Shown here piece by piece: positions 4,401-19,665 of a stretch of 21,296 bases of DNA. The notes below the pieces were generated by a model. The model did no database searches. It was given only the letters and a program-made list of their open reading frames with translations, and was not told the origin of the DNA. Each line of letters begins with the position of its first letter. The first letter of the stretch is position 1. Position numbers and translations under genes: made by a program. The stretch covers positions 1 through 21,296 of the forward strand of contig VHCO01000141.1 in assembly GCA_016871715.1 (NCBI GenBank), given 5' to 3'. The DNA comes from Verrucomicrobiota bacterium. Lineage in GTDB: Bacteria > Verrucomicrobiota > Verrucomicrobiia > Limisphaerales > J093.

Positions 4401-7400
4401 GAGCTCCGGCCCCAACAAGGCCAACAAGCCCTCCTCCGCCGCCAAAGAGAACCCCAGGTGGTCCGCCCCTCTGTCAGGCCGGCCGTCGGCCTGGAACAGG
4501 GCGAAGCCGCCAGGCGCAATGTAACTCAAGGGAGCGATGCGATGCTGCGCCGGATCGCCGATCGGGTTATCGGTCAGATAGAGCCCGCCCAGCGACACGG
4601 GCAAGGTGTCCGAGTTGTACAACTCGACGAAATCGTCCCGGAACACCGCGCGGGTACTCGCCAGCCATTCATTGAGCCGCAGCCGGCTCGCCTCACCCGT
4701 CGGCTGAGACACGTTGGCCGCGCCGAAGGTCGGGCGCGTCAAGGCCCATTGCCCCGCACGCCCCACGCGGCCGACCGAGAGGTCCGGCAGTTGCCGGCCG
4801 AACACGACCGCATCCAGCAACGCCCCGCCCCGGTCGGCGCGATCGAACAGGTAGAGCCCCTCGCCGCTCTGATTAAGCGCAAAACCCAAGTGCAGTCCCG
4901 GCGCGGCCAGGTCGGCGTCGGCGTACACCACCAGGTACCCTTCCGCCGCGAGGATGGTGCCCGGCGGAAACGTAAAGCGATGGGGCCGGTCGGGGGCGGT
5001 TGTCAGGCCCAAACCGCTCAGGTCGTGGGCGACCGGGCTGTCGTTGTACAACTCGACCAAGTCGGGGTAGTCCTCGCCGTGGAGCACGGCCTGATCGTTC
5101 TTGGCCAGCAGCTCGTTGAGCCGCAACGCGCGGTAACCCGTGTCCACCGTCCACACGGCCGAGAGCGTCGCCGGCACCGGCTGGGGTTGACCCACCGGAG
5201 CCTCCGCCTCGCCCGGCGGCGCCAGCGAGCTCACCTGCCACACTCCGGCGGAGTTCTTGCCGATGACCTCGACGCGATACACCCCGTTGGTCAGCCCCTC
5301 GATCGCCAACGGTACCGACACCGGCTGCTCCTCGCTCAGCGCCGTGCGCGCAAACTCGGTCACCGGCGCCCCTGGCGTGACGGGCGGCGCGGCGGTCCAG
5401 ACCGAGTAGCGATAGTGCGTCACGCCTGGGCCAGCGACCGTCAACAGCGCGTTGGTCCGCCAGGTGGTTGGCGGCGGTTCACCGGCGACCGATGCCCCCG
5501 CCGGCACCAAAGCGCCGCGATCGATCCCGTTGGGGCCCGTGCCCTGAGCCGGCGAGCCGGGACGCAACCGATAGGCTTCACGGATGTTCTGCCATGTAAC
5601 CTGGTTGGTGAGGACCAGCCGCGGATCGACCCGCCAATCGTTCGTGCTCCGCACGGCAGCGTCGGGTCCGCTGAGCACATTGCCTTCGCTGGTCAGGTCC
5701 AAGGTGCCCCACTCCGGATCGTTCACGTACGCCGCCAAGAAGTTGGTGGGCGTGTGCCAGAGAATGTTGCCGCGAAACACCCCCCCCTGCGCCGGAGTGA
5801 CCCCGTCCGAACGCCGTCCCGGTTCGTCCAAGAGAAACCCCGCCTTCGGCAACCCCACCGCCGTGTTGTTCTCGAGCAGGTAGAAGTTGCCTTCTTTGGC
5901 CATGGCCATGTGCTCGGAGTCGTAAAAGAGATTGCGCACGATCGTGATCCGCGACGTGCGCGAGCCGGACTTGCCACCCGAGATCGCGGCGGAGGTGTCC
6001 ACGGGCGACACGGTCTGAACCGTCTTCAGAAAGACGTTGCCCTCGACGTGAGCATCGGTGCCGTCCAAATCCAGGAAATCGTCGCCCGTCCGCGTGAAAA
6101 CGTTGTCGTGCACCTGCAAGATCGCTCCCGGCCGCTGGCCGCCCGTGAAATCGATCGTGTCGTTGTAGCCACTGGTCTCCCCAAACCAGCATCCTTCGAC
6201 AATCCCATACCCCGCCGCCGGCAAACCGCTGCCGTGGATGAGTTCTTCGTCGAGCAAAGTTGGAAACACGCAGTGGCGAATGTGGAAGCTGGCGGCGCGC
6301 AGATCCACGTACTGCGCCGTCGTGTCGGCAAAGGTACACTGCTCCAAAAGCAGCGTCCCATCGTCCACCCGCACGTTGTAGCCGCCCATGCCGGCGCCGG
6401 AGAAATCCACATTCCCAAACCAGCCCTGGGCCGTCGCGCCCGCCACCAACACACCACCCCAAGCGCCGCCCGACCCTGGGAGGGTGGCGAACCGGATCCG
6501 GCGCCCGTCGGTTCCCAGCGCGGCAAGCCGGCCGTTCACCGTGAGATTAGCTCCCGCCGCAAGAAACACCGTCACGCCCGGCTCGAGCGTGAGCGTGCGG
6601 CCTGCCGGCACGGTGAGCGGACTCGTTACATAGTACGGCCCCTGCGGGGCGGACCAAGTCGTGTCCTCCGCCAGCGGGCCAGACACCTCCGTGCTCGCGC
6701 CGGTGTCCCGCCACACATCGGCACTCGCCCGCTCGCGCTCGCGCCCAGCCACGTCGAACGACTGGACCAGCACCCGGTTGATGCCCGGCCACAACGCCAC
6801 GTCCGCCGCCGTCCACGTCCCCTCCCAAGCGCTCCAGGCGGCCGGTTGCCCGTTCACTCGCACGGCGCGCGTCTCGACCACGTCCGCCATACCGGTCAGG
6901 GTGACCTGCGCATTGGTCGTGTAGGGATAGCCGCTCACCAAGGTCAGCCCCGGCTGGATCGCCAACCCGCGCGGAATCTGGGAAGCCACCCAAGCACGGC
7001 GCAGCCCAGCGAAATCTTTGATGCTCTCGAGCACGGTCTCCGGCACCAACCCGCGCAGGGTCTGGTCGACCAGTGGCTCGAAGGTGTCCGGCGCGCCGAC
7101 CGTTTCGAGCAGGCGCACGAGCGTGGCATAGTAAACGGGCGCGAACTCAGGATGCTTGACCAACCGATCGAGCACCGGGTTGGCTGCCATCCGGAACAGG
7201 CTGTCCTCGACCCGACCGCGCGTGTCGCCCTGGTTGAAGATCGTGTCCAAATCGTACGGCAAGACCCGAAAGCGCGGGTCCAAGACGCCTCGATACAAGA
7301 AGAAGTCGTCCCCCTCGCCATCCCCGTTGTTCCCGTTGGCGAGGTTGGTTTCCTTGTTGTCGGCCAGCGTCTCGAGCGCGAAATACAACATCCACGCCTC

Positions 7401-9098
7401 GACGTCCACCACCCGCCGCACCGCTGCCGCATACTCGACCTCCGCAGCCTCATCCAACACGCGCGTCAACTCGATGAGATCGGACCAGTCGTCCTCGCTG
7501 GTATTGGTGCGCTTGAAGTAGTTCTCCCGGTAAGGAGCCGCATCCTCGCCCTCGTAGTGCAAATCGGCGCCCGGCGCGCGCAGCCGAATCCCGCGGTACA
7601 TGTTCCCCGAGCTGTCCCGGGGATAGGTGCGCGCCGCAAACTCGCTGTTGAGCACCTCCGCGCACACATACAACCCGTAAGAAGGCGAGCCGCTCGTGGC
7701 TAAATTGGCGTTGTTCACCCGCACCTGCACCGGGCGCGCCGAGCCGGCCGGCAGGCCCGCCCGCCGGTACCAGGCGCTGCCCAACAACTGGGCGTGCGTG
7801 TACTGCGTGTTTAAATTGATCGCCGACACCCGCTTCCAGAGCTGGTCGCTCCGGAAACTCACGCGGTAGCTCTGCGGCGACCGCGTCCGACTCCCATTGC
7901 CGCGGTTGCGCACGTCGGCCAGATAGCGCAATTCGCTCCCTTGCCCGTCAACGCTGATGAAGGTGGCGTTCATCTGGGCATGGCTGCGGCTCTGGTCGCT
8001 GGTCGCGTACGGCGCGGGTGGATTGCGCTCGTTGATCTGCCGGAGCTCCGCCAGGTCGGCCCCCTTCAGCACCAGCCGATGGATGGGCAGCGTTCCCGCG
8101 TAAAGAGCGTCATCCACCTGGTAGAGCAAATTCGCCGCCTGCGCCGGTTCGCCGTCCCGCCAGGCTGGCGCCGGGTAAGTCCGCCCCTGGCCCACCCCAT
8201 CCTCCGCCTCGAAGTAGAACTCGACGACCGTATCCTTGGGCGCCGGCGGCAGCCACGCCCCATAGACCCCGTCCGCAGCCGCGCCGTCGCCGTGCTCGCC
8301 ATCGTCCCACATCGGCGCGGTTTCATACTCGGGCGCCTCATCCACCCGGTAGTGCACCCGCACCGTCAGACCCGTACCCGCCTCGTCGAGGACTCGCGCC
8401 GTGACCGCTACCGGATCCGTTGCCTTTGGGACCAAGGGGAAATGTGCCGCCTCGAGAATGAACGGGGCCACGTTGGCGCGCGCGACCGAGTTGGGTTGGC
8501 CCGGCGTGCCGCCGCTCACTTCGCTGGCCGCCCAATTCTGGCCGTACACGTTGGGCAGCGCCGGTTGAATCAACTCGATCGACCGGCCACCGCCGTCGGC
8601 GGCGCTAGCCCAACCCCATCCGCGATGCCCGGCGTCGATCGGCCCCAACTCGCGCCGCGCCCAGTCGCCTTCGTCCGCATATCGAATGGCGTTCACGCGG
8701 TCGCCGCGCGCATCCACCAGCTCGAGCAATTGCCCGCTGTTGCTAAGGATGCCGTCCCAACCACCCACGAAATTCGTCACCGTGGGATGGTTGGTCCGGA
8801 AATTATCGAGATCGGCCGCCACGGCCAAATACTCGCCCGCTGGCAAACTCACGGCGGGGAAAGTGAACCGCACCCCCGTCGTGAACCGCCAACCCGTCAG
8901 ATCCACCGCAGTCGCGCCTGCATTGTAGAGCTCGATGTACTCCTCCCGCGTGTCCTCACTCGCCGGCCGATACATCAACTCGCTGATCAACACCTGCCCC
9001 AACCCAAAGGCCGCCCCCGGACCTAACGCAAACCACCCGAGCAAAACCCAGTACCAGCGCATCCCGCTCCAACCCGACCGCAGCCATTTCGTCCTCAT
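1413..9098 (-). CDS. Giant secreted multidomain protein (~2560 aa): signal peptide, ~7 lamin-tail domains, CotH kinase-like domain, right-handed beta-helix, C-terminal TSP3-like Ca-binding motifs plus beta-sandwich
   Basis: Single uninterrupted minus ORF 1413..9149. The tracked start is TTG at 9149. I prefer ATG at 9096-9098 (MRTKWLRSGWSGMRWYWVLLGWFALGPGAAFG, a signal-peptide-like N-terminus); ATG at 9107 is an alternative. LTD signatures recur about seven times: LISELMY..EYIELYN..DLTGW, LRLNELLA..DLVELYN, LRLNEWLA..DFVELYN, VLLNEVLA..DWVELFN, VRVNEWMA..DWFELYN, VAINEVLT..IELHN, VVLNELMF..FLELRN. The CotH family region is YRVSFRSDQLWKRVSAINLNTQY...GLYVCAEV...WMLYFALETLADN...PYDLDTIFNQGD. The beta-helix-like region is NDTIDFTGG...VHDNVFTRTGDDFLDLDG...VEGNVF...IVRNLFYDS. 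The C-terminal motifs are DRDADGLWDDWE and DPDRDGLTNLQE. The stop (TGA) is at 1413-1415. Confidence 0.8.
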   Translation of the reverse strand: MRTKWLRSGWSGMRWYWVLLGWFALGPGAAFGLGQVLISELMYRPASEDTREEYIELYNAGATAVDLTGWRFTTGVRFTFPAVSLPAGEYLAVAADLDNFRTNHPTVTNFVGGWDGILSNSGQLLELVDARGDRVNAIRYADEGDWARRELGPIDAGHRGWGWASAADGGGRSIELIQPALPNVYGQNWAASEVSGGTPGQPNSVARANVAPFILEAAHFPLVPKATDPVAVTARVLDEAGTGLTVRVHYRVDEAPEYETAPMWDDGEHGDGAAADGVYGAWLPPAPKDTVVEFYFEAEDGVGQGRTYPAPAWRDGEPAQAANLLYQVDDALYAGTLPIHRLVLKGADLAELRQINERNPPAPYATSDQSRSHAQMNATFISVDGQGSELRYLADVRNRGNGSRTRSPQSYRVSFRSDQLWKRVSAINLNTQYTHAQLLGSAWYRRAGLPAGSARPVQVRVNNANLATSGSPSYGLYVCAEVLNSEFAARTYPRDSSGNMYRGIRLRAPGADLHYEGEDAAPYRENYFKRTNTSEDDWSDLIELTRVLDEAAEVEYAAAVRRVVDVEAWMLYFALETLADNKETNLANGNNGDGEGDDFFLYRGVLDPRFRVLPYDLDTIFNQGDTRGRVEDSLFRMAANPVLDRLVKHPEFAPVYYATLVRLLETVGAPDTFEPLVDQTLRGLVPETVLESIKDFAGLRRAWVASQIPRGLAIQPGLTLVSGYPYTTNAQVTLTGMADVVETRAVRVNGQPAAWSAWEGTWTAADVALWPGINRVLVQSFDVAGRERERASADVWRDTGASTEVSGPLAEDTTWSAPQGPYYVTSPLTVPAGRTLTLEPGVTVFLAAGANLTVNGRLAALGTDGRRIRFATLPGSGGAWGGVLVAGATAQGWFGNVDFSGAGMGGYNVRVDDGTLLLEQCTFADTTAQYVDLRAASFHIRHCVFPTLLDEELIHGSGLPAAGYGIVEGCWFGETSGYNDTIDFTGGQRPGAILQVHDNVFTRTGDDFLDLDGTDAHVEGNVFLKTVQTVSPVDTSAAISGGKSGSRTSRITIVRNLFYDSEHMAMAKEGNFYLLENNTAVGLPKAGFLLDEPGRRSDGVTPAQGGVFRGNILWHTPTNFLAAYVNDPEWGTLDLTSEGNVLSGPDAAVRSTNDWRVDPRLVLTNQVTWQNIREAYRLRPGSPAQGTGPNGIDRGALVPAGASVAGEPPPTTWRTNALLTVAGPGVTHYRYSVWTAAPPVTPGAPVTEFARTALSEEQPVSVPLAIEGLTNGVYRVEVIGKNSAGVWQVSSLAPPGEAEAPVGQPQPVPATLSAVWTVDTGYRALRLNELLAKNDQAVLHGEDYPDLVELYNDSPVAHDLSGLGLTTAPDRPHRFTFPPGTILAAEGYLVVYADADLAAPGLHLGFALNQSGEGLYLFDRADRGGALLDAVVFGRQLPDLSVGRVGRAGQWALTRPTFGAANVSQPTGEASRLRLNEWLASTRAVFRDDFVELYNSDTLPVSLGGLYLTDNPIGDPAQHRIAPLSYIAPGGFALFQADGRPDRGADHLGFSLAAEEGLLALLGPELEAIDWVVYGPQRPDVSQGRTPNGGLQFALFSQPTPGGVNPGTIGGGGTSTSTFELVSMTNSWNYWQTGDPGAGWSSAAFDDGAWPAGPALLYVESSSLPAPKNTPLDLGQITYYFRTRFDFPTNTAGVKLAARAVVDDGVVLYLNGVEVWRLGLPSGEITDSTRASRTVGNATYEGPVDLPTEALRRGENLLAAEVHQTSSGSSDIVFGLALEASLTRTNFNLETIPVLLNEVLAGNATLTNRAGATPDWVELFNPSPDPVDLDDCSLTDDLASPRRWVFPAGTVLPAGGWLVIECDRRQPVSAANTGFGLNAQGGGVYLFDRLAAGGGLLDSLNYGLQASDFAIGRTPDGFGSWGLVLPTPGAANLEAALGDVAAVRVNEWMASPATGEDWFELYNPNAQPVALGGLFLTDDLNRRNQFEIRPLSFLATGPRGLVRFWADGAPESGADHVGFKLAAAGESIGLFSADGIRIDGVTFGAQQAGVSEGRLPDGGSGPVVRFPVTATPGASNYLPLEGVAINEVLTHAQPPLERAIELHNPTNDDQPVGGWFLSDSPANFQKYRLPAEAAVPAHGFLVVYESEWETGPGALAPLALDPYRSGEVWLAAADLAGRLTGRRAHAAFDAAALGTSMGRVPTSAGADFVALSRQTFGRDWPATVEEFRTGRGAPNASPHLGPVVLNELMFHPPSGAGSGGADNIVDEFLELRNVTADAVLLYDPTSPTNTWRLRGGLSFDFPGNLTLARGGCLLLVNFSPGANPGQLTDFRSRYAVPDGVTILGPYAGKLGDADDTIELLQPGPPLPASGEVPYLLVERVRYTNRAPWPAGASGTGRSLQRRAGSAYGNEPTNWRVADPTAGRDNDGSTGSEDRDADGLWDDWELLYFGSLDRPEGAPAADPDRDGLTNLQEQAAGTHPLDWASGLRILSAGFDGGRFGLLFRTAPSRSYLIQYRDSLTDGVWRNLVELPIQAATDEVRVTDPTAGVARARYYRVVTSGAP

Positions 9099-9174
9099 GT
9101 CTGTCATTTCCAAGCCGTCAAGTGTCTCGCAGGTTTCCTGCCAACACAACTAACCGTCTTCTAGCCGCCGCCCG

Positions 9175-9506: not shown

Positions 9507-9974
9507 ATGAAACTGATGCGATTCAATCAGCCGGACCTCTGGGCGGTGTCGCCCATCGAGCGTATGAGCAGTCTGCGCGACCAAATCAACCGCCTCTTCG
9601 AGGCGCCCTTCGGTGAACTGGCGCGCGCGGGTGAGTTCTTCAACGGTTGGGCGCCTGCCCTGGACCTACGCGAGGACAAAGAGAATCTCGTGGCCTCGAT
9701 CGAACTGCCAGGACTTAAGAAGGAGCAAATCGATGTGTCGGTGCACGACGGCGTCCTGAGCGTTGCCGGCGAGCGGGCCGACGAGAGCTCGAACCAAGAG
9801 GCGACCTGCTATCGAACCGAGCGTTTCTACGGCCGCTTCCATCGGACGCTGACGCTGCCCAAGCCGGTGAAGGTGGACGCCATCAAGGCAACTTACAAAG
9901 ACGGCATCCTGACCGTCACGTTGCCGAAGACCGAGGAAGCCAAACCGAAACAGATCACCGTCAACGTCGGCTAA
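9507..9974 (+). CDS. Small heat-shock protein, Hsp20/alpha-crystallin family (155 aa)
   Basis: The alpha-crystallin domain is present: WAPALDLREDKENLVASIELPGLKKEQIDVSVHDGVLSVAGER......GRFHRTLTLPKPVKVDAIKATYKDGILTVTLPK (the G-x-L-x-V/I-x-L-P-K C-terminal hallmark). There is a good RBS, aaaggaaca, before the ATG. Stop TAA is at 9972-9974. Confidence 0.9.
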   Translation: MKLMRFNQPDLWAVSPIERMSSLRDQINRLFEAPFGELARAGEFFNGWAPALDLREDKENLVASIELPGLKKEQIDVSVHDGVLSVAGERADESSNQEATCYRTERFYGRFHRTLTLPKPVKVDAIKATYKDGILTVTLPKTEEAKPKQITVNVG

Positions 9975-10041: not shown

Positions 10042-10419
10042 ATGAACTCATTGACCAAAACCGACCGCAGCCGCGAGGCGGCTGCGATGCCCGAAACCCC
10101 GTACGTCACGCCCGCAGTCGACATCGCCGAAACCAAGGAAGCTTACCTTCTGCGCGCGGACATGCCCGGCGTGACCAAGAACGGTCTCGAGATCCAACTC
10201 GAGGCCAACGAACTCACGATTGTGGGCCACCGCGCTGACGCCCGGGAAGGGAGCTACTTGCACCGCGAGTCCAGCACCCACGATTTCCGGCGGACCTTCG
10301 TCATCGACCCGACCATCGATGCGTCGCGCATCTCCGCCAAGATCGAGCAGGGCGTTCTGACGGTGCACCTGCCCAAGACCGATCAGGTTAAACCGCGTCG
10401 GATCAACGTGACCGAGTGA
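10042..10419 (+). CDS. Small heat-shock protein, Hsp20/alpha-crystallin family (125 aa), second tandem copy
   Basis: AVDIAETKEAYLLRADMPGVTKNGLEIQLEANELTIVGHRA......FRRTFVIDPTIDASRISAKIEQGVLTVHLPKT shows the same domain pattern. The RBS gaggaaa lies 6 nt before ATG 10042. Stop TGA is at 10417-10419. Confidence 0.85.
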   Translation: MNSLTKTDRSREAAAMPETPYVTPAVDIAETKEAYLLRADMPGVTKNGLEIQLEANELTIVGHRADAREGSYLHRESSTHDFRRTFVIDPTIDASRISAKIEQGVLTVHLPKTDQVKPRRINVTE

Positions 10420-10422
10420 CTT

Positions 10423-10505
10423 GCTGCTGGGCCCTCCTGGGCCGTCCCAGCAGCGTGCCGTTCCACGCCACCCCTCTCCTTCGCTCGTCGAGGGAGAGGG
10501 TTTTT
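10423..10505 (+). terminator. Two tandem hairpins ending in GC-stem + TTTTT: a Rho-independent terminator of the hsp20 operon, possibly bidirectional since it also serves convergent hypC
   Basis: Hairpin 1 is gctgctggg (10423-10431) / cccagcagc (10446-10454). Hairpin 2 is ccctctcc...ctcg t cgag ggagaggg (10472-10500), immediately followed by ttttt (10501-10505). It is located between the stop of hsp20-2 (10419) and the stop of minus-strand hypC (10517). Confidence 0.6.
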
Positions 10506-10516
10506 CCCGCCTCCTC

Positions 10517-10816
10517 TCACTCTGCCGCACCCAAGCTCGCCCGGTCCGCAGATCGGGGCGCAGGCTGGGAACCCTCCGCGAGTTCCGCTAAGCCCTCCAT
10601 CTCCCGCAGGTACTCGAAGACTTGGTTGGCTTCGGCTTCGTCCACCAGGCTCAAGGCACAGCCGACGTGAACCACGGCGTAGTCGCCCACCTTCGCCTCC
10701 GGCACATAGGCCATACTCACTTCCTTGACCACCCCGCCAAAGCTCACCCGGCCGGTGCGAGTCATCGGATCGTCACCGCTCAGGCTGAGAATCTTGCCGG
10801 GAATCGCCAAGCACAT
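10517..10816 (-). CDS. hypC: Hydrogenase maturation factor HypC/HupF family (99 aa)
   Basis: The minus ORF contains the defining N-terminus MCLAIPGKI (Met-Cys start; ATG at 10814-10816, and the tracked ORF start 10852 is upstream of it). The conserved core is GRVSFGGVVKEVSMAYVPEAKVGDYAVVHVGCALSLVDEAEANQVFEYL, comparable to E. coli HypC ...[28 protein letters not shown]. There is a C-terminal extension of ~20 aa beyond typical HypC. Confidence 0.8.
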   Translation of the reverse strand: MCLAIPGKILSLSGDDPMTRTGRVSFGGVVKEVSMAYVPEAKVGDYAVVHVGCALSLVDEAEANQVFEYLREMEGLAELAEGSQPAPRSADRASLGAAE

Positions 10817-11145
10817 AGGACGGCAGAATAAAGAACCCAGCGCGGTTGGCAAGCGGAGCGAACATGGAGGCAGCGATTTCGGAAGCTGGTCGGGATCTCT
10901 GGGCGAAACGGTTCACGAGGGCTGCAGCAAGCTGTGACGCCGGGCCTCCGAAGGCCGTGGCGCCCAGCTCGAGGAACAACGCCGCCACCGAACGCTGCGG
11001 GCAATTACGGTTCGATTTTGCGGGTGGACAACTTCGATTGCACGGCGGCGGTTGCGAGCCCGTTTACGAGGAAATGCTGGCGATCCCGATCCTCACGAAA
11101 GAGGTCCAGTGTGGCGGGACGCGGTCTTGCGCTCCGAACGTGTGG

Positions 11146-11370
11146 CTACGCGGGGACCGGGGCAGTCTTGCGGCGGGTGCCGGGGCGGATCGAAACCACA
11201 TGCATCGGGTCAATGATGTCCAGCAGTCCTTTTGCGTCCTCGATCACCACATTGTGCCGGCCTACCAGGACGAATTCCGGGTGCGGCACGCGGAACTCCT
11301 TGCCGTCGGAAGTGCGGATAATCATGGGGCGCTGCCCTATCAGTTGCTGCCGAATCAATTCCCGATTCAT
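11146..11370 (-). CDS. Hypothetical small protein (74 aa), no family recognised
   Basis: ATG at 11368-11370. GC3 is strongly biased like the genuine genes, and the amino-acid composition is balanced and non-low-complexity (MNRELIRQQLIGQRPMIIRTSDGKEFRVPHPEFVLVGRHNVVIEDAKGLLDIIDPMHVVSIRPG). The overlapping plus-strand ORFs are R/P/A-rich junk. Confidence 0.4.
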   Translation of the reverse strand: MNRELIRQQLIGQRPMIIRTSDGKEFRVPHPEFVLVGRHNVVIEDAKGLLDIIDPMHVVSIRPGTRRKTAPVPA

Positions 11371-11633
11371 GCCGCATGTATGGCCCGAAAGCGGGCTTGG
11401 GTCAAGCCCCGTGCCTGTCCAAACATCAGCGATTTGGGAAGGTCGAAAGGTCGCAACGCAAGGAGTATGAACTCGCCAGGATTTTGTAGCTGCACTTCCA
11501 CAGGCTGGCCTGTTAGCCTGCGCCGTGATGCCGCCTCCCGATACCAGGATCGACCCGCCCGAACCGACCCGGTGGCTGCGCCTGGGCCATCGCGGCGGGG
11601 CCGGCGGGCGGAAAGCCGTACCTTGCGCCGCCT

Positions 11634-12356
11634 ATGCCTGAGGCCATCTCGATCGTGCTCGCCGAGGCCGTGCGCCTAGTGAACTTGCCGCTGACGCTGC
11701 TGCTGATCCTTGTGGTCCTGTACTGGCTGCTGGTGATCTTGGGCGGAGTGGACGCGGCGGTGCATGGCGGGCACATCGAGCTGGACGCCGGCCATGTCGA
11801 GGGCGGCCACGGCGACCTGGGCCACGCGGAACCCGGCGCCGCCGGCCATGGTCATGGCGAAGGCCTCGAGGGGGCAGGCGCGCATGGGTGGGGGTGGGTC
11901 CTAAGTTTCCTGCACCTCGGCCAAGTGCCCGCGACCGCCGTGTTCAGTGTGCTCACGTTGTGCCTGTGGACGTTTTCGTTGCTCGGCAATTTCCACTTCA
12001 ACGCCGGCTACCACCTCGGGTTGGCGGCGGCGTTGCTCCTACCCAATCTCCTGGTGAGCGTCGTGCTCACCCACTTCCTGGTGTTGCCGCTCAAACCGCT
12101 GTTTCGCATGCTGAACAAAGACTACGACGCCGCCGCCCCCATCATCGGCCAGATCTGTGAGGTCGCCACGGGCCACGCCGATGCGCACTTCGGCCAGGCG
12201 AATATCTCGACCCGAGGCGCCCCGATCACGATCCAGGTGCGCGCCGCCCCGGGCGAAGTGCTGCGCCGGGGGCAAAAGGCTATGGTGGTTGGGCGCGACG
12301 AACAACACGGCTTTTACGAAATCCGCAAATACGACGAACCTCAACTGGAGCAATAG
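11634..12356 (+). CDS. yqiJ: YqiJ-like (DUF1449) membrane protein with C-terminal NfeD-type OB-fold, flotillin partner (240 aa), with an expanded His/Gly-rich loop
   Basis: The architecture matches E. coli YqiJ. TM1 is LPLTLLLILVVLYWLLVILGG, followed by a His-rich loop (E. coli ALDAHLDHYDSIATGHISH; here VDAAVHGGHIELDAGHVEGGHGDLGHAEPGAAGHGHGE). TM2 FLHLGQVPATAVFSVLTLCLW corresponds to E. coli YLNIGRLPALVVLCLLAGF. After TM3 comes a C-terminal beta-barrel, GQICEVATGHA...GEVLRRGQKAMVVGRDEQHGFYEIRKY. The gene ends 3 nt before the flotillin ATG. Confidence 0.8.
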   Translation: MPEAISIVLAEAVRLVNLPLTLLLILVVLYWLLVILGGVDAAVHGGHIELDAGHVEGGHGDLGHAEPGAAGHGHGEGLEGAGAHGWGWVLSFLHLGQVPATAVFSVLTLCLWTFSLLGNFHFNAGYHLGLAAALLLPNLLVSVVLTHFLVLPLKPLFRMLNKDYDAAAPIIGQICEVATGHADAHFGQANISTRGAPITIQVRAAPGEVLRRGQKAMVVGRDEQHGFYEIRKYDEPQLEQ

Positions 12357-12359
12357 CAT

Positions 12360-14393
12360 ATGGTGGAAGGCATCTTGACCATCGTCACCGTGATCGGGGT
12401 TATTATCCTGGTCGGGTTCCTGATCCTGCTGGTCCGCTGCTACCGCAAGGTCGAACAAGGCCAAGCCCTCGTCCGCAACGGCGTCGGCGGCACCAAGGTC
12501 TCCTTCTCCGGCATGATCGTGCTCCCCGTCCTCCACCGGGCCGAGTACATGAATATCTCGGTCCACCGCGTCGAGATCGACCGCCGCGGTGCGGTGGGAT
12601 TGATCTGCCGCGATAACCTGCGCGCGGACATCACCGTGGCGTTCTTCGTGCGGGTCAATAAGACCGTCGAGGACGTGCTCAAGGTGGCCCAGACCATCGG
12701 GTGCGCTCGCGCCTCGAGCCGCGAGGCCATTGTCGAGCTGTTCGACGCCAAGTTCTCCGAGGGCCTCAAGACCGTCGGGCGCCAGTTCGACTTCGTCGAG
12801 CTCTACAATTCCCGCGAGAAATTCCGCGATGAGATCATCAAGGTGATCGGGACCGACCTCAACGGGTATGTGCTCGAGGACGCGGCCATCGATTACCTCG
12901 AACAAACCAGCCTCGAACACCTCAACCCGGACAACATCCTCGACTCCGAGGGCATCAAGAAGATCACCGAACTGACCGCCACACAGGCCAAGCTCGCCAA
13001 CAACATTTCCCGCGACAAAGAGAAAGTCATCACCCGCCAAAATGTCGAGGCCCAAGAGACCATCCTCGAGCTCAACCGCCAGTTGGCTGAAGCCACCGAG
13101 AAGCAAAAGCGCGAGGTCGCGTCCGTCAAGGCCCGCGAAGAAGCCGAAGCCCGCAAGATCGAGCACGAACAACGGCTCCGCGCCGAGCAGGCACGCATCG
13201 CGACGGACGAGGAGATCGCCGTGGCGGACGAAAACAAGAATCGCCAGATTGTCGTCGCCCAAAAGAACCGCGAACGCACCGCCGCCGTCGAGACCGAGCG
13301 TGTCGAGAAAGACCGCTTGCTCGAAGTCACCGAGCGCGAACGCATCGTCGCCCTGGCCAACATCGAGAAGAACAAGGCCATCGAAATCGAACAGAAGAAG
13401 ATCCAAGACGTCATCCGTGAGCGCGTCATGGTCCAGAAGACCGTCGTGGCCGAGCAGGAACGCATCAAGGACACCGAAGCCTTCGCGACCGCTGACCGCC
13501 AAAAACGCGTGGTGGTCACCGCGGCGGAAATGAAAGCCGAAGAAGCCCTCGTCCAGGAAATCAAGGCGGCGGAGGCGGTCAAGAAATCCACCGAACTCCA
13601 GGCGGAGGCGGAGAAATACCGCGTCGAGCGCACGGCGGAGGCCGCGCGAAACGCGGCGCAGGTCCACGCGGAACAGGTTGTCCTCGAGGCCGACGCAGAG
13701 TTCAAGGCGGCCGAGCGCCAAGCCGCGGCCAAAAAGACCCTCGCCGAAGGCGTCACGGCCGAGACGGCGGCGCCGGGACTTGGCGAGGCGCAGGTGCTCG
13801 AGGCCCGGGCCGGCGCCCTGCAAGAGCAGGGCGAAGCCGAAGCCAACGTTATGCGCCTCAAGTTCCACAGTGAGGCCGAGGGGATCAAGGAGAAGGCCGA
13901 GGCGATGAAGATCTTCGACGGCGTCGGCCGCGACCACGAGGAGTTCAAGCTCCGCCTCAACAAGGAACGCGACGTGGACCTGGCCCTCATCCACATCCAG
14001 AAGGACATCGCCGAGCAACAAGCGCGGGTCCTGGGCGAAGCGCTCAAGAGCGCCAAAGTCGACATCGTGGGCGGCGACGCGGCGTTCTTCGACAAGATCG
14101 TGGGCGCCATTTCCGCCGGGAAATCCGTCGACCGCATGTTGGCGAACAGCCAGGCGCTCACCGACCTCAAGGCCGCCTTGTTCGACGGCGATCCCGAACA
14201 GTTTCGCAACCAAGTGCAACGCTGGGTCGGGCGGTTCGGCCTCTCGACCGAGGACGTCAAGAACCTGACGATCGCCGCGGCGCTGACGAAGATGATCGCC
14301 TTGAGCCAGGACGGGCGCGCCAAGCGCGCATTGCAGAGCTTGCTCGACCTGGGCAGCCAACTCGGCTTGAACCAGCAGCCGCTCCATGAGTGA
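12360..14393 (+). CDS. yqiK: Flotillin / SPFH (band-7) domain protein, YqiK-type (677 aa)
   Basis: There is an N-terminal TM (ILTIVTVIGVIILVGFLILLV) followed by an SPFH domain closely parallel to E. coli YqiK. The pairs are LVRNGVGGTKVSFSGMIVLPVLH vs FVRTGLGGQKVVMSGGAIVMPIFH, RADITVAFFVRVNKTVEDV vs RVDVVVAFFVRVKPSVEGI, and LEQTSLEHLNPDNILDSEGIKKIT vs FNQTSKEHFNPNNAFDAEGLTKLT. A long E/A/R/K-rich coiled-coil flotillin region follows. RBS ggag is 9 nt upstream. Confidence 0.9.
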   Translation: MVEGILTIVTVIGVIILVGFLILLVRCYRKVEQGQALVRNGVGGTKVSFSGMIVLPVLHRAEYMNISVHRVEIDRRGAVGLICRDNLRADITVAFFVRVNKTVEDVLKVAQTIGCARASSREAIVELFDAKFSEGLKTVGRQFDFVELYNSREKFRDEIIKVIGTDLNGYVLEDAAIDYLEQTSLEHLNPDNILDSEGIKKITELTATQAKLANNISRDKEKVITRQNVEAQETILELNRQLAEATEKQKREVASVKAREEAEARKIEHEQRLRAEQARIATDEEIAVADENKNRQIVVAQKNRERTAAVETERVEKDRLLEVTERERIVALANIEKNKAIEIEQKKIQDVIRERVMVQKTVVAEQERIKDTEAFATADRQKRVVVTAAEMKAEEALVQEIKAAEAVKKSTELQAEAEKYRVERTAEAARNAAQVHAEQVVLEADAEFKAAERQAAAKKTLAEGVTAETAAPGLGEAQVLEARAGALQEQGEAEANVMRLKFHSEAEGIKEKAEAMKIFDGVGRDHEEFKLRLNKERDVDLALIHIQKDIAEQQARVLGEALKSAKVDIVGGDAAFFDKIVGAISAGKSVDRMLANSQALTDLKAALFDGDPEQFRNQVQRWVGRFGLSTEDVKNLTIAAALTKMIALSQDGRAKRALQSLLDLGSQLGLNQQPLHE

Positions 14394-17300
14394 AGCACCC
14401 ACGGCCGCCCCGGCGCCGGCCGCCCCCGCCACCCTCGAGAGCGGCACCTACGAGATCCTCCGGGACCGCCTCCAGGCCCGCGCCCGGGAACTGCAGGAGC
14501 GCCTCGGCCAATTGGACACCGCCCGGCGCGCGGTGTTTGGCTCGCTCGGCTTCGCCCTGGTGGGCACGGAGTGGGTGGTCACCGCGCACAACTGCATGCC
14601 GAGCGACCTGGTGGCCATCGGAGGCAACCGGTTCCTCTTTGGCTACAACGTCTTCATCGGACTGAAGTCGCAAACCGACGTGGCCGACGTCTTCGCCGCT
14701 TACGAGAAACACGAGCACAGCTTCCGCCCCACCGCACTCACCTGGCTGGCCGACGAACGGTTCCAGGCCGATTTCCACAGCCTCTACCGCTACTACCGCC
14801 AAACTCAGTTCGCCAAGTTCTCGATCCTCGGCCCGCATCTGTTCATGGTCTTCCGCGTGGGCCCGCAGATCTCCGACATCAAGACCTTCAAGTGGCTGCT
14901 CACACCCGACGGACTCGCCTACCAAGGCAACCGCAGCGACCACGAATTCCGCTACCCTCCGCAACACGAGTTCGAGTGGACCCGCACCCACCGCGACCTC
15001 CATCGCCAGGGGCCCCATCCGCACATCTCGATCGCCGACCGGCTTTTCGTCGAGACCATCGGCGGCGACCTCACCATCAAGATCGAGGATAACACCGCCA
15101 CCGGCGCGGGCATCTACGCGGAGCCGGTCGCCCACCGCGATCAGACCTTGGACGACGCGGAGATCTTCTACGCCATCCTGGGCCATCTGATCCTGCTCAA
15201 GATCCGGCCCTACCAGGAAGATCACTACCGCTATTTCGTCTACAACGAAAAGCTCCGCCAGGTCCGCCGGATCGACACCCTCGCCGACGCCTGCGTCTTG
15301 CTGCCCAACCATCACGGGATCATCTTTTCGAACGGGTACTACCTGCAACTGGGCGAGTGCAAACAGTACCCGGGCACGCTCACCGACATGACGTTCGAGC
15401 GGCGCGTCGCCTCTCCCAACGGCGAAGATCACCTCTACGTGTTCTACAATCGCCAGGACGGCCTCTACGTCCTGATGTCCTACAACGTCATCGCCCAACA
15501 GGTCGAAGCCCCGGTCCTCTGCAACGGTTTCTCCCTCTTTGCCAACGGCGAACTCGCCCTCTTCAAAGCCCAGGCCGAACCCCAAAAACATCACGTCCTC
15601 CAAATCTGGCAAACGCCGTATCGCACCGGCGAATCGCCCCTCCCCGAACAGCAGGATTCCTACCTGTTCAAGATCGGCAACCCCGCCATCGTCCGGTGCA
15701 TGGCCGAGTGTCACGAACTGCTCAGCCTCCTGCGCAAGGACGATACTTACGCCGACCTCTACGTGGACCTGGTCAAGCGCGCCGACGACGTTCTGAACGC
15801 CTACTTCTGGCTCGACCACCCGGAGGCCTGCGGCCTCCGGGACGTGCTCCAGGCCATCCACACCGCCGCCGCCGGCGCCGTCGACGAATTCGATAAGGTC
15901 GCCCGCCTGCGCCACCACGCCCGCTCGGAACTCGCCCGCGTCAGTCAGAACGCCCGCGCCCTGATCGAGTCTGTCCAGGGGGCGCTCTACGAAGAGATCC
16001 TCGAGTACGTCGAGCACCTCGCCCGACTGCGCGCCCAGCGCGGCGAATTGATCGCCCTAAAGGAGGTCCGCTACGTCGACGCGGCACAGGTCGAATCCCT
16101 CGAGGCGGAGGTGGCGGATCAGGCCGAGGCGCTGGCGCACCGGTGCGTCGAGTTCCTCCTCCAGCCGGATGCCCTGGCACCCTACCACGCCCAGGCAGTC
16201 GCCCACCGCGCCGCCTGCGACGGCCTCGAGAAAGTCGCCGAGGTCAAGCAGGTCGAGGCCCAAGTCGCGCAATCCGCGACGAACCTCGAGCTGCTGATCG
16301 AAATCGTCAGCAACTTGAAGATCGAGGACGCCACCCAGACCACCCGTATCGTCGAGAACATCTCCGGCGTCTACGCCGAGCTGAACCAAGTCCAAGCCCG
16401 GCTGAAACGGCGTCGCCAAGAACTCCAGCAGGTGGAAGGCGCCGCCCAGTTTGCCGCCCAGATGCGGCTGCTCGACCAAAGCGCCGTCAACTACCTCGAG
16501 GTCTGCGCCGCCCCCGAGCGCTGCGACGAGTACCTCAACAAGCTCCTCGTCCACCTGACCGAACTCGAAGGACGCTTCGCCGATTTCGACGCGTTCCAGG
16601 CGCCCCTGGCCGAGAAACGCGAAGAGCTCTACGCCGCCTTCGAGGGCCGCAAAGTCGCCTTGGTCGCCGCCCGCAGCCAGCGCGCCCAGAACCTGATGAC
16701 CGCTGCCGAGCGCATCCTCAAAGGCATCGCCCAGCGCGCCCAGCAGTTCGATGCGCTCCAGGACATTCATGGCTTCTTTGCCGCCGACCTGATGGTCGAG
16801 CGCGTGCGCGAACTGGTGCGGCAACTCCTCGAACTGGACGACCCGGTCCGCGCCGGCAACCTGCAGACCCGCCTCAAGACCCTGCGCGAAGAGGCCGTGC
16901 GCCAGCTCAAAGACCGCCAAGACCTCTTCGTCGATGGGCGCAACCTCATCCAATTCGGCCGCCACAAGTTCACCGTTAACCATCAACCGATCGAGATCAC
17001 CTTGGTTCGGCGCGACGACGACCTGTTCTACCACCTCACCGGGACCCAGTTCTTCGAGCGCGTCGAAGATGCCGAACTGCTCGCCACCCGGTCGGTCTGG
17101 ACCCAGGAACTCGTCTCGGAGAACCCCGAGGTCTATCGCGCGGAGTACCTCGCCTATCAACTCCTCCGGACTCTCGATCGGCCCGGAGCCGATCCCAGTC
17201 TCGCCGCCCTGGCGGAGGGGAGCCTCGAAGCCTGCCAAGGACAGGTCCAGCACTTCATGGCCCCGCGCTACGCGGAAGGCTACGTCAAAGGCGTGCACGA

Positions 17301-19665
17301 CCTCGACGCGGCCCAGTTGCTGCAGGCCCTGGCGCGCCTGCACCGCTCGGTCGGCCTGCTGCGTTACTCCCCGCGCACCCGCGCTTGCGCGACCGTCTTT
17401 TGGCAAGTCCATCGCCAGCGGGATCCGCTCTTGGCGGCACGCCTCGAGGGCTTTCGCCTCCGCCACGAACTCTTCGCCCCGGGCCCGGCCCCGCCGGATA
17501 CGATGGGCGAGCTGCAGCAGCGGATCGAGGCCTTCTGCCAAGAAACCCGGCTCTTCCCGGCCTCCATCGCAGAAGCCGCCGCGGAGTACCTCTTTCAGGA
17601 ACTCACCTCTCGATCGCGCTCGGTCATCAGCCAACCCGCCGCCGACCTGGTCACCGCGCTCGAAAGTCACTTGCGCAACCGCCAAGCCCATGAAGCCTTT
17701 GCCGCGGCGCTCGCACGCGTCGCCCACGATCCAGCCAGCGCCTTCCCGGTGCTACGCGACTTGCTGGCCGGGTACCTGGCCACGCAAACCGTCAACGCGC
17801 CGCCGGATTACCTCGACGAATCCGCCTCGCTCCTGCTCCGCCGAGCCTACGATCCGCAAGCGGTCGTCGCCGCGGTGGTCGACACGCGGCTCGAGGGCCT
17901 GCTGGGCACACACCCCGTCATCCAAAATGGGGTCTACCACCTCAAGTTCCACCAGTTCATCGAGAAACTGCGGCGTTACGAGCAGGACGTCGTGCCCGCT
18001 TTCAACCGGTGCCACGCGCGCAAGACCGCCCTCCTGGAACAGAAGCGACGCGCTCTCCGCCTGGCCGAGTTCCAACCTCACGTCTTGACCGCGTTCGTGC
18101 GGAACCGGCTCATTGGCCAGGTCTACTTGCCGCTGATCGGCGACAACCTGGCGAAACAGATCGGTGTGGCGGGCGAACAGACGCGCACCGACCGCATGGG
18201 GTTGCTGCTCCTGATCTCCCCGCCGGGCTATGGCAAAACCACCCTCATGGAGTACCTCGCCCATCGCCTCGGCATCACCTTCATCAAAATCAACGGCCCG
18301 GCCCTGGGCGGCCGCGTGACCTCGCTCGATCCTGCCGAAGCCCCCAACGCCAGCGCGCGCGAAGAACTCGAGAAGGCCAACCTCGCCTTCGAGATGGGCG
18401 ACAACATCATGATTTACCTCGATGACATCCAGCATTGTCATCCCGAGCTCCTGCAAAAGTTCATCTCCCTCTGCGACGCGCAGCGCAAGATCGAAGGCGT
18501 CTACCGAGGCCAAGCCCGCACCTACGACCTGCGCGGCAAGAAAGTGGCCATGGTCATGGCCGGCAATCCCTACACCGAAAGCGGCTCGAAGTTCCAAATC
18601 CCCGATATGCTCGCCAACCGCGCCGACACGTACAACCTGGGCGACATCGTCGCCCACGCCGCCGACGCCTTCCGCGCGAGCTACCTCGAAAACGCCCTCA
18701 CCTCGAACCCCGTCCTCAGCCCACTGAGCAGCCGCCACACCGCCGACCTCTTCCCCCTCCTCGAACTCGCCGCCGGCGGCTCGCGCGAGAACGTCCAATT
18801 CGAGGGCAACTACTCCGTCGAGGAAATCAACGAGTTCGTGGCCGTCCTGCGCATCCTGCTCCGGCTGCGCGACGCCGTCCTGCGGGTCAACCAGGAGTAC
18901 ATCCGCTCCGCCGCTCAGGCCGATGCCTACCGCACCGAGCCGCCGTTTCGCCTCCAGGGGTCCTACCGCAACATGAATCGCCTCGCCGAACGGGTCGTGC
19001 CCATCATGAACGACGACGAGGTCACCGCCCTGCTCCATGACCACTACCAAAACGAGGCGCAAACCCTGGCCAGCGGCGCGGAGGCGAATCTCCTCAAGTT
19101 CTCCGAGCTCATGGGCACCCTGACCGCCGAGGCTGCCCAGCGCTGGCAGGACATCAAACGCACCTTCCAACGCAACCTGCTCCTGCAAACCACCGACGCC
19201 CAAGACCCCGTCGGTCGCATCGCCGGTCAGTTGGCCACCTTCGCCGAGGGCCTCGAGGCGATCCGCAAGGTGCTAGCGACCGGACTCTCCGAGCGCCGGC
19301 CGCCCCCCGACACAGCCGCCACGGAACTGGCCGCCCTCCCCCAAAGCCTCGAAGCCATCCGTGCCACCCTCGCTGAAGGACTGATCCGCGCCGCCGAACC
19401 GCCTCCGCCCCCAGCGCCTAGCCCGGATCCACTCCTCGATCTGGTCCAAAACCGGTTGGCTGACCTCAACCAGGCCCTCCGATCCATCCAAGCCGCGCTA
19501 GCGGCGAGCGCCAAGCCAACCGAGCCAAGCCCGGCCACCTTCCGCTTGATTAACCCCGCCAGCAAAGCCGATTTCGAGATCACCAACGTCAGCCAGGACA
19601 CCCTCAACAAGATCTGGTCCTTGGTTGACGAGGAACGCCAACGCCGACCGTCCCCCGACAAGTAG
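14386..19665 (+). CDS. Giant (1759 aa) multidomain protein with a single MoxR/AAA_5-class AAA+ ATPase module near the C-terminal third, a large aromatic-rich N-terminal domain and ~700 aa of predicted helix; coupled to flotillin
   Basis: The start ATG overlaps the flotillin TGA (ATGAGTGA at 14386-14393). Walker A is LLLISPPGYGKTTLMEYLAHRLGITFIKINGPAL (nt ~18210-18300). Walker-B-like is IMIYLDDIQHCHPELLQKFISL (18421-18438 = DDIQHC). A sensor-1-like motif VAMVMAGNP and IPDMLANRADTYNLGD together parallel the MoxR ...LADEINRAppktqsaLL...vlATQNP...LPEAQLDRF layout. The N-terminal ~370 aa is aromatic-rich, possibly beta-rich (WVVTAHNC...FGYNVFIGL...YRYFVYNEKL...LYVFYNRQDGLYVLMSYNV). The central region is long and helical/coiled-coil. 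Codon bias is consistent throughout and there are no internal stops. Confidence 0.8.
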   Translation: MSEAPTAAPAPAAPATLESGTYEILRDRLQARARELQERLGQLDTARRAVFGSLGFALVGTEWVVTAHNCMPSDLVAIGGNRFLFGYNVFIGLKSQTDVADVFAAYEKHEHSFRPTALTWLADERFQADFHSLYRYYRQTQFAKFSILGPHLFMVFRVGPQISDIKTFKWLLTPDGLAYQGNRSDHEFRYPPQHEFEWTRTHRDLHRQGPHPHISIADRLFVETIGGDLTIKIEDNTATGAGIYAEPVAHRDQTLDDAEIFYAILGHLILLKIRPYQEDHYRYFVYNEKLRQVRRIDTLADACVLLPNHHGIIFSNGYYLQLGECKQYPGTLTDMTFERRVASPNGEDHLYVFYNRQDGLYVLMSYNVIAQQVEAPVLCNGFSLFANGELALFKAQAEPQKHHVLQIWQTPYRTGESPLPEQQDSYLFKIGNPAIVRCMAECHELLSLLRKDDTYADLYVDLVKRADDVLNAYFWLDHPEACGLRDVLQAIHTAAAGAVDEFDKVARLRHHARSELARVSQNARALIESVQGALYEEILEYVEHLARLRAQRGELIALKEVRYVDAAQVESLEAEVADQAEALAHRCVEFLLQPDALAPYHAQAVAHRAACDGLEKVAEVKQVEAQVAQSATNLELLIEIVSNLKIEDATQTTRIVENISGVYAELNQVQARLKRRRQELQQVEGAAQFAAQMRLLDQSAVNYLEVCAAPERCDEYLNKLLVHLTELEGRFADFDAFQAPLAEKREELYAAFEGRKVALVAARSQRAQNLMTAAERILKGIAQRAQQFDALQDIHGFFAADLMVERVRELVRQLLELDDPVRAGNLQTRLKTLREEAVRQLKDRQDLFVDGRNLIQFGRHKFTVNHQPIEITLVRRDDDLFYHLTGTQFFERVEDAELLATRSVWTQELVSENPEVYRAEYLAYQLLRTLDRPGADPSLAALAEGSLEACQGQVQHFMAPRYAEGYVKGVHDLDAAQLLQALARLHRSVGLLRYSPRTRACATVFWQVHRQRDPLLAARLEGFRLRHELFAPGPAPPDTMGELQQRIEAFCQETRLFPASIAEAAAEYLFQELTSRSRSVISQPAADLVTALESHLRNRQAHEAFAAALARVAHDPASAFPVLRDLLAGYLATQTVNAPPDYLDESASLLLRRAYDPQAVVAAVVDTRLEGLLGTHPVIQNGVYHLKFHQFIEKLRRYEQDVVPAFNRCHARKTALLEQKRRALRLAEFQPHVLTAFVRNRLIGQVYLPLIGDNLAKQIGVAGEQTRTDRMGLLLLISPPGYGKTTLMEYLAHRLGITFIKINGPALGGRVTSLDPAEAPNASAREELEKANLAFEMGDNIMIYLDDIQHCHPELLQKFISLCDAQRKIEGVYRGQARTYDLRGKKVAMVMAGNPYTESGSKFQIPDMLANRADTYNLGDIVAHAADAFRASYLENALTSNPVLSPLSSRHTADLFPLLELAAGGSRENVQFEGNYSVEEINEFVAVLRILLRLRDAVLRVNQEYIRSAAQADAYRTEPPFRLQGSYRNMNRLAERVVPIMNDDEVTALLHDHYQNEAQTLASGAEANLLKFSELMGTLTAEAAQRWQDIKRTFQRNLLLQTTDAQDPVGRIAGQLATFAEGLEAIRKVLATGLSERRPPPDTAATELAALPQSLEAIRATLAEGLIRAAEPPPPPAPSPDPLLDLVQNRLADLNQALRSIQAALAASAKPTEPSPATFRLINPASKADFEITNVSQDTLNKIWSLVDEERQRRPSPDK

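Follow-up and report, generated by a model that had tools for sequence, protein, structure and literature searches.

Ravi, Anantharaman, Aravind et al. (mSystems 2024, PMC11237479; bioRxiv 2020) described computationally an operon that combines PspA with a flotillin, a YqiJ/YuaF-like protein and an AAA+ ATPase, and noted a wider distribution for shortened operons that lack PspA (flotillin, YqiJ/YuaF and, "in some cases", the AAA+ ATPase), which might act with PspA encoded elsewhere. Here we analyze a 21,296-nt stretch of DNA from a Verrucomicrobiota bacterium (assembly GCA_016871715.1, contig VHCO01000141.1, positions 1-21,296 of the forward strand; hereafter "the window", with a GC content of about 65%), which carries a cassette of three open reading frames (ORFs) of this kind:

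11634-12356, + strand: ORF1, 240 amino acids (aa), predicted YqiJ/YuaF-like (NfeD2-type) inner-membrane protein
12360-14393, + strand: ORF2, 677 aa, predicted flotillin-family (YqiK-type, SPFH2) membrane protein
14386-19665, + strand: ORF3 (the giant ORF), 1759 aa, predicted soluble DUF3686/DUF7902/AAA+ protein, named "DNA repair ATPase" in databases

An earlier note on this DNA presented the cassette as a candidate undescribed system. This is wrong, since Ravi et al. describe the operon, including its three-gene form (PMC11237479), and the cassette is a further instance of a kind known in silico. The three proteins and their order are identical in the two cases; the full form of the published operon matches the layout of the Bacteroidota loci that we surveyed, and the window, which within its 21 kb has no PspA, CesT or repressor gene, is the abbreviated form mentioned by Ravi et al. 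A supplementary row of the same paper, for Dokdonia donghaensis, gives the gene order that we see in other Flavobacteriaceae, and from this order and the architecture in these relatives their AAA+ protein probably belongs to the DUF3686 family. Literature searches for DUF3686, for PF12458 and for flotillin together with "DNA repair ATPase" found nothing, and this ATPase is mentioned neither in the 2009 survey of SPFH operons (PMC2636767), nor in a 2026 survey of SPFH proteins in P. aeruginosa, nor in a paper on ESCRT diversity.

Several better characterized systems resemble parts of the cassette. In E. coli YqiJ-YqiK and B. subtilis YuaF-FloT (NfeD2-SPFH2 pairs; Hinderhofer et al. 2009, PMC2636767) the NfeD-like gene likewise lies directly upstream of the flotillin gene, but the E. 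coli pair lacks the third gene, and YqiK has a Flot C-terminal domain where ORF2 has instead a conserved, clade-specific C-terminus. HflK/C-FtsH likewise pairs an SPFH scaffold functionally with an inner-membrane AAA+ machine, but FtsH is a protease of the classical AAA clade that is anchored in the membrane, and its HflK/C cage is periplasmic, whereas the cassette ATPase is predicted to be soluble, is AAA_5-like and has no protease domain. The HflK/C and FtsH genes, moreover, are not known to be adjacent. In Vps4-ESCRT-III (CdvC-CdvB) the ATPase gene lies beside the gene of a membrane-remodelling polymer, and the cassette may work alike; PspA, an ESCRT-III homologue, shares an operon with the trio in Bacteroidota. 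Compared with Vps4, ORF3 has neither an MIT domain nor a full-length match to classical-clade AAA, and its conserved partner is a flotillin, not PspA. In B. subtilis PspA-YdjGHI, an SPFH protein encoded in the pspA operon ties PspA to the membrane (PMC8581546); unlike the cassette, that system has other accessory proteins and no ATPase.

That the three genes belong together as a functional unit conserved across phyla is supported by a survey of loci (one genome per species; at least 587 confirmed giant-gene loci, 80 of which, 21 kb each, were kept), in which homologues of the two smaller proteins were detected by tblastn with the window's ORF1 and ORF2. At 68 of the 80 loci the giant gene has a flotillin gene upstream in the same orientation; where at least 3.2 kb of upstream sequence is available, this is the case at 58 of 61 loci, with a detectable ORF1 homologue in 50. 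The linkage spans Verrucomicrobiota, Planctomycetota, Bacteroidota, Desulfobacterota, Clostridia, Kiritimatiellota and Omnitrophota, and when all flanking ORFs were clustered, the ORF1, ORF2 and giant families alone turned out to be conserved around the giant gene. The outcome named in the earlier note as fatal to its idea, namely that homologues of the giant protein are never adjacent to SPFH/NfeD genes, is clearly contradicted by these counts. Pairwise divergence is correlated among the three families (Mantel r 0.75 for giant-flotillin, 0.71 for giant-ORF1 and 0.68 for flotillin-ORF1; p 0.001; 40 loci), which, as calculated with no species-tree control, is consistent with inheritance of the three genes as a unit.

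The spacing of the genes is less constant than their order. The spacer between flotillin and giant gene ranges from -47 to 2372 nt (median about 120 nt), and exceeds 300 nt, with inserted genes, in about 26 of the 68 loci. A start/stop overlap like that of the window occurs at a single other locus (L080). The overlap is thus a feature of this window and not of the system, and the co-translation of all three genes that had been deduced from it is not supported as a general property. The inserted genes mark the spacer as an insertion hot spot; they include an AbiEii toxin, a DMP19-like gene, DUF3997 and a DUF559 Vsr-like endonuclease (e.g. L011 6643-7941, L012 6609-7695, L037 7371-7928 and L073 5874-7774). 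Five loci have unrelated upstream genes and no flotillin (L013, L014, L020, L047 and L075). In L013 a STAND/NACHT NTPase and a tetratricopeptide repeat protein are encoded about 3-5.5 kb upstream of the giant gene (2336-4981), with small ORFs between, and L047 has a Uma2 endonuclease as a neighbour.

In the window itself the cassette is a self-contained three-gene unit, as indicated by its junctions, the GC content at third codon positions (GC3), the lack of a convincing internal terminator, a terminator-like hairpin upstream and a convergent gene downstream, which encodes a TRAM/U5-methyltransferase. The TAG stop codon of ORF1 (12354-12356) is followed by a 3-nt spacer, CAT, and the ATG of ORF2 at 12360. 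The second junction and the upstream limit are as follows:

14386-14393, + strand: overlap of the ORF2 stop and the ORF3 start, 8 nt, ATGAGTGA; ORF2 ends in CAT GAG TGA (TGA at 14391-14393) and the ATG of ORF3 is at 14386
10472-10500, + strand: strong intrinsic-terminator-like hairpin (12-bp stem and T run), which closes the Hsp20 genes and is the upstream limit of the cassette transcription unit

GC3 is 0.83-0.86 for all three ORFs and matches that of the other real genes in the window, so that both ORF calls and coding signal bear out the arrangement read earlier from the letters, three co-directional ORFs separated by a 3-nt gap and then joined by an 8-nt overlap. A scan for terminator-like sites gave 13, against 10.1 +/- 3.4 expected from shuffled sequences. 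None of those within the cassette is convincing, the + strand candidates at 14617 and 17372 having stems of only 5-6 bp.

ORF1 gave no match in Pfam (even at an E-value of 10) or NCBIfam scans of the full-length protein, and a PDB sequence search returned nothing. Its relationship emerged from profile comparison: a family profile built from 33 syntenic members aligned by hhalign to E. coli YqiJ with a probability of 97.1% (E-value 7.4e-11) over 184 columns, i.e. near full length, whereas the pairwise BLASTP match to YqiJ was marginal (E-value 0.035), as was the match of the profile to the structure of the soluble domain of B. subtilis YuaF (2k14, E-value 0.24). ORF1 also lies directly upstream of the SPFH2 gene, with the 3-nt gap in the window and a spacer that is short in most loci (median about 30 nt over 51 loci). 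These comparisons identify ORF1 as a YqiJ/YuaF-type NfeD2 protein, as had been supposed. Its predicted parts are:

11643-12104, + strand: hydrophobic segments at residues 4-45, 98-120 and 126-157 (Kyte-Doolittle scan), with a His/Gly/Asp-rich loop between
12126-12338, + strand: C-terminal soluble domain, residues ~165-235, alignable to its C-terminal counterpart in YqiJ and, weakly, to YuaF

A C-terminal beta-barrel has been described for YuaF/YqiJ (PMC2636767), and the corresponding domain of ORF1 is a putative OB-fold.

ORF2 is 33% identical to E. coli YqiK over 434 aa (BLASTP, E-value 3e-52), and hhalign aligned its residues 11-404 with residues 10-392 of YqiK (probability 99.9%), covering the anchor, the SPFH domain and the coiled coil. 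At NCBI and JGI its homologues go by the names "flotillin family protein" or "YqiK". Full-length ORF2 nevertheless gave no match to Pfam (even at an E-value of 10), NCBIfam or PDB sequences, and none of the 120 ORF2 homologues among the matches listed (P0121-P0240) bears a precomputed Pfam domain. The missing Pfam match is probably an artefact of the HMMER composition filter, caused by the Glu/Ala/Lys-rich coiled coil, since a scan of residues 1-240 alone yields Band_7 above the gathering score; among the giant-linked flotillins of other phyla, just one of eight gives a full-length Band_7 match. With these results the earlier assignment of ORF2 as a YqiK-type SPFH/flotillin protein is confirmed. 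We distinguish the following parts:

12360-12455, + strand: predicted N-terminal hydrophobic membrane anchor, residues 1-32 (hydrophobicity scan; helix 2-27 in the AlphaFold2 (AF2) model)
12447-12878, + strand: SPFH/Band_7 domain, residues 30-173 (PF01145, E-value 5.2e-10, 40.1 bits against a cut-off of 23.6)
12945-14054, + strand: Glu/Ala/Lys-rich helical, putatively coiled-coil region, residues ~196-565 (low-confidence AF2 model; alignment with the YqiK coiled coil extends to residue 404)
14055-14390, + strand: clade-specific C-terminal domain, highly conserved with invariant columns, not alignable to YqiK

The last ~270 residues of ORF2, beyond the end of the hhalign alignment at 404, do not align with YqiK and are strongly conserved within the clade. 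The Flot domain (PF15975) stays below the cut-off in residues 481-677 (E-value 0.21, 12.1 bits against 27), whereas E. coli YqiK, used as a control, matches it with an E-value of 6e-41. We regard this C-terminal domain as a candidate docking site for the ATPase. The AF2 model of full-length ORF2, built with 20 close homologues, was poor (predicted local distance difference test, pLDDT, 57.6; predicted template modelling score, pTM, 0.20) and for this reason was not used in the fold search. The closest named homologue (P0122, 72% identity), among the matches listed, is labelled "Candidatus Paceibacterota", which is probably a binning error; the remaining named close homologues are from Verrucomicrobiota or its subgroups, except for one Candidatus Binatia entry.

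The giant protein ORF3 has more than 4444 homologues, 50-60% identical across phyla; over ~1700 residues, the identity between phyla is 45-60%. DUF3686 (PF12458) covers residues 35-474 (E-value 1.2e-177, profile positions 1-448 of 448) and DUF7902 (PF25472) residues 595-679 (E-value 4e-27); the architecture of DUF3686, DUF7902 and a C-terminal AAA+ module recurs in 120 of 120 homologues among the matches listed. A search with the N-terminal 720 residues returned 954 clusters at 50% identity, all full-length members of which have 1590-2036 aa. A Kyte-Doolittle scan found no hydrophobic segment. The AF2 model of residues 1-720, based on a 60-sequence alignment, is confident (pLDDT 87.3, pTM 0.71) and predicts a long N-terminal helix followed by a domain of ~28 strands (57-409) and by helical bundles (426-720). 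Foldseek matched the strand-rich domain to the DCAF1 WDR, the clathrin heavy-chain terminal domain, Vps18 and Ski8 (E-values 2e-6 to 1e-4, probability ~1, TM-score at most 0.40). We interpret it as a predicted beta-propeller, which we call divergent because of the low TM-scores. The main elements of ORF3 are:

14554-15612, + strand: beta-rich domain, residues 57-409, ~28 strands, predicted divergent beta-propeller inside DUF3686
15661-16545, + strand: predicted helical-bundle/coiled-coil region, residues 426-720, including DUF7902
18205-18582, + strand: AAA+ ATPase core, residues 1274-1399 (PF07728, AAA_5, E-value 5.6e-8, 33.3 bits against a cut-off of 22, positions 2-127 of 139)
18217-18243, + strand: Walker A, SPPGYGKTT, residues 1278-1286, invariant in 12 of 12 homologues (GYGKTT 1281-1286)
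18421-18426, + strand: Walker B acidic pair D1346-D1347, hhhhDD and not hhhhDE, invariant, motif assigned by eye
18565-18621, + strand: candidate sensor-1 Asn1394 (AGNP) to candidate arginine finger R1412 (MLANRAD), both invariant

Both the AAA_5 and the AAA models of Pfam score above their cut-offs in the core, AAA_5 being the only one to span it completely. Matches to classical AAA, RuvB and p97 proteins, PDB sequences included, are confined to the Walker A stretch, and when the complete giant protein or the AAA region alone was compared with the PDB by profile, the matches were likewise to Walker A only. The stretch from Walker B to sensor 1 and the pattern AGNP...G..F.IPDMLANRAD presumably resemble those of MoxR, midasin and MCM-type modules, and it is by analogy with the motifs of these proteins that N1394 is taken for sensor 1 and R1412 for the arginine finger. 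Since the matches to PDB sequences are limited to Walker A, our placement of the module in a MoxR/midasin/MCM-like clade is tentative. Of the MoxR/AAA_5-type module announced in the earlier note, the AAA_5 part stands, as this model covers the whole core; the protein does not count as a MoxR system proper, since Pfam gives no AAA_3 match and no surveyed neighbourhood contains a VWA partner gene. It thus shares an AAA_5-like core with the ATPases of MoxR-VWA pairs (e.g. RavA-ViaA), but is about five times longer and has the propeller and coiled-coil N-terminal part. Some homologues (P0027 and P0056) carry ankyrin-repeat Pfam domains besides DUF3686 and AAA, a variant architecture, and one of 1711 aa (P0092, 54% identity) is listed in EukProt, a set of eukaryotic proteins, where it may reflect contamination or horizontal transfer.

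At 14-17 Bacteroidota loci PspA/IM30, a CesT_Tir_1/YbjN-like gene and a divergent helix-turn-helix (HTH)-Peptidase_S24 (LexA-like) repressor stand immediately before the three genes. Four Bacteroidota loci (L017 12992-17104; L034, L066 and L070) have, after the giant gene, DUF4178, a 256-aa protein, DUF350 (YjfL-like) and a TM-spermine-synthase; DUF4178, DUF350 and spermine-synthase genes form the second PspA-linked group of Ravi et al. (PMC11237479). In four loci of Verrucomicrobiota/Kiritimatiellota a gene for a phage CII (CP76)-like regulator lies ~100-700 nt upstream of ORF1, and is possibly a lineage-specific regulator of the cassette:

L018, 4078-4551, - strand: CII (CP76)-like regulator
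L021, 4179-4694, + strand: CII (CP76)-like regulator, with an intervening ORF of 190 aa
L024, 4557-5024, - strand: CII (CP76)-like regulator
L030, 4297-4776, - strand: CII (CP76)-like regulator

Membrane remodelling, cargo extraction and defence, the roles raised in the earlier note, are all hypotheses; the genes around the trio speak for envelope stress and membrane dynamics more than for defence.

On this basis we propose, with a probability of roughly 0.5, that the giant protein is an ATP-driven remodeller of the flotillin/NfeD scaffold in envelope or membrane stress, acting with PspA where it is present; Ravi et al. propose the same association and a role in sub-membrane dynamics (PMC11237479). 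At the inner membrane, on its cytoplasmic side, ORF1 and ORF2 would assemble into an oligomeric scaffold of the flotillin type, to which the soluble giant protein would be drawn via its N-terminal propeller/helical module. It would oligomerize by its AAA+ domain, and ATP hydrolysis would remodel the scaffold (assembly, disassembly or reset) and, where PspA is present, PspA polymers too; alternatively, it might act on client proteins held in the scaffold during membrane or envelope stress. Our data show the identities of the three proteins, their co-directional linkage across phyla, the correlated divergence and the recurrent PspA-network context; that the giant protein touches the flotillin, hydrolyses ATP and oligomerizes is what we infer, as are its substrate and the kind of stress that triggers it. 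Precedents are reported for coupling of SPFH proteins to PspA (B. subtilis YdjI, PMC8581546), for a cage of SPFH proteins that encloses an AAA+ machine (HflK/C-FtsH, PMC13220708), for dome-shaped flotillin oligomers (PMC13000311) and for the holding of unfolded proteins by flotillin/NfeD, as in the S. aureus FloA/NfeD microdomains that confine them (PMC11222466). Within the window, two Hsp20 genes adjoin the cassette and support the proposal as a local stress context.

Several observations weigh against this proposal. PspA is missing from the window and from most loci outside Bacteroidota. The five loci mentioned above have no flotillin within up to 8 kb upstream (the contigs of L014 and L075 hold less than 2 kb upstream), which means that the adjacency is not obligatory. 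The AAA+ clade is tentative, with PDB matches to Walker A only, and Walker B reads DD, not DE. That the giant protein binds the flotillin is a presumption, and the correlated divergence, for which there is no species-tree control, may reflect only a shared vertical or horizontal history. Literature searches found no experimental work on any member of the cassette.

A more specific and bolder version, which we consider doubtful, makes the giant DUF3686 protein the missing ATP-driven motor of bacterial sub-membrane scaffolds: its N-terminal module, resembling coat proteins of the clathrin/Vps18 type, would dock on the C-terminal apex of the flotillin dome, and the AAA+ ring would disassemble or reset flotillin polymers and, where present, the ESCRT-III-like polymers of PspA. 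The protein would then be a functional analogue of Vps4 from another AAA+ lineage; according to a 2025 review, a Vps4-like ATPase appears to be absent in bacteria. We regard as comparably unlikely that the protein serves as a quality-control unfoldase, an analogue of HflK/C-FtsH without the protease, in which the scaffold corrals membrane proteins that are damaged or unfolded and the giant AAA+ protein extracts or unfolds these clients and not the scaffold. Such a role would agree with the regulation of the AAA+ protease FtsH by SPFH cages (PMC13220708) and the confinement of unfolded proteins reported for S. aureus FloA/NfeD microdomains (PMC11222466), as well as with the Hsp20 genes next to the cassette in the window and with a beta-propeller that could be a binding platform for clients or adaptors. 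Pfam, however, detects no protease domain in the cassette proteins, and no classical aromatic pore loop could be recognized by eye between Walker A and Walker B. AAA_5/MoxR-like modules are not known as typical threading unfoldases, and a chaperone or protease gene is never a conserved neighbour.

The idea that the cassette acts in conflict or defence, with a membrane scaffold and ATPase that sense phages or other invaders and trigger a protective or abortive response, is in our opinion improbable. It draws on the spacer between flotillin and giant gene as an insertion hot spot (AbiEii toxin, DUF559/Vsr-like, DMP19, DUF3997), on the phage-type regulators that adjoin the trio (HTH-S24 in Bacteroidota, CII/CP76-like in four loci of the Planctomycetota-Verrucomicrobiota-Chlamydiota (PVC) group), on the STAND NTPase of L013 and the Uma2 endonuclease of L047, and on weak, sub-threshold PADLOC matches to LmuB and IetA. 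None of the three proteins, however, has a significant family in PADLOC 2.0: ORF1 and ORF2 gave no matches, and the best ones of ORF3 (E-values 0.0014-0.008) concern only the coiled coil or the P-loop. Moreover, the giant protein combines its high identity across phyla with a constant architecture, which sets it apart from the fast evolution of defence genes; a search of 2.9 million viral contigs gave no homologue, the genes beyond the trio are unrelated housekeeping genes, and the recurrent partners belong to the PspA network.

A DNA-repair ATPase, as the protein is currently called, with the flotillin linkage explained by membrane-anchored DNA processing or SOS-regulated expression, is very improbable. 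Pfam describes DUF3686 as "ATPase involved in DNA repair" and homologues are named "DNA repair ATPase" at NCBI, while some JGI labels read "MoxR-like ATPase"; the divergent LexA-like HTH-S24 repressor in Bacteroidota and weak RuvB_N matches in Pfam/NCBIfam scans point in the same direction as the name. The RuvB matches, however, are limited to the P-loop stretch, Pfam detects no nuclease, helicase or DNA-binding domain in ORF3, the conserved partners are membrane proteins, and our literature searches gave no paper that backs the name. Finally, a fortuitous adjacency, with the giant gene functionally independent of yqiJK, could invoke the five loci without upstream flotillin and the lack of such a partner for yqiJK in E. 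coli, but is refuted by synteny, since 58 of 61 loci, from seven phyla or more, show the linkage with the same gene order and orientation.

The remaining features of the window concern the surroundings of the cassette. Between it and the upstream neighbours lies a stretch that could be its regulatory region:

10853-11633, + strand: region 5' of ORF1, ~780 nt, with no convincing + strand gene, presumed promoter/regulatory region

A promoter scan of this region found no sigma-70-like site on the + strand; it has no Pfam matches, and no Rfam family was detected in it or anywhere else in the window. It contains a minus-strand ORF of 74 aa (11146-11370) without a Pfam match. Two + strand ORFs before ORF1 (10846-11679 and 10934-11470) were rejected as compositional artefacts (GC3 ~0.67 against 0.83-0.86), as was the 802-aa ORF opposite ORF2 (12039-14447, - strand; GC3 0.68). 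The latter is one of four antisense ORFs of 483-802 aa that face ORF2 and the giant gene (12039-14447, 14257-16017, 16057-17727 and 17752-19203, - strand), all of which look like compositional artefacts, with GC3 computed for the first only; simple ORF calling also took such antisense ORFs at loci L033, L045 and L055. Further upstream are two tandem Hsp20/alpha-crystallin small heat-shock genes (9507-9974 and 10042-10419, + strand), possibly a stress-related neighbourhood of the cassette, which is not kept at other loci, and an isolated HypC/HupF hydrogenase-maturation gene (10517-10852, - strand), with no further hyp genes in the window. The region 1413-9149 (- strand) encodes 2578 aa that include six Lamin Tail Domains and one CotH kinase domain. 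Giant secreted or surface proteins of this sort are typical of PVC bacteria, and this one has no relation to the cassette.

For the annotation of the family our results mean that the name "DNA repair ATPase" is in use without support that we could find, and that the partner flotillins go unmarked by Pfam, as the full-length scan fails. Bacterial flotillins and PspA/Vipp1 polymers are thought to organize and repair membranes, and to our knowledge there is no dedicated energy-consuming regulator of either. The giant protein is an obvious candidate for such a regulator of flotillin/PspA scaffolds, given its 45-60% identity across distant phyla and its adjacency to the flotillin clade in ~95% of the genomes examined. 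As the carriers include cultured bacteria (Flavobacterium, Leeuwenhoekiella, Hymenobacter, Roseibacillus and Symmachiella), its role is directly testable.

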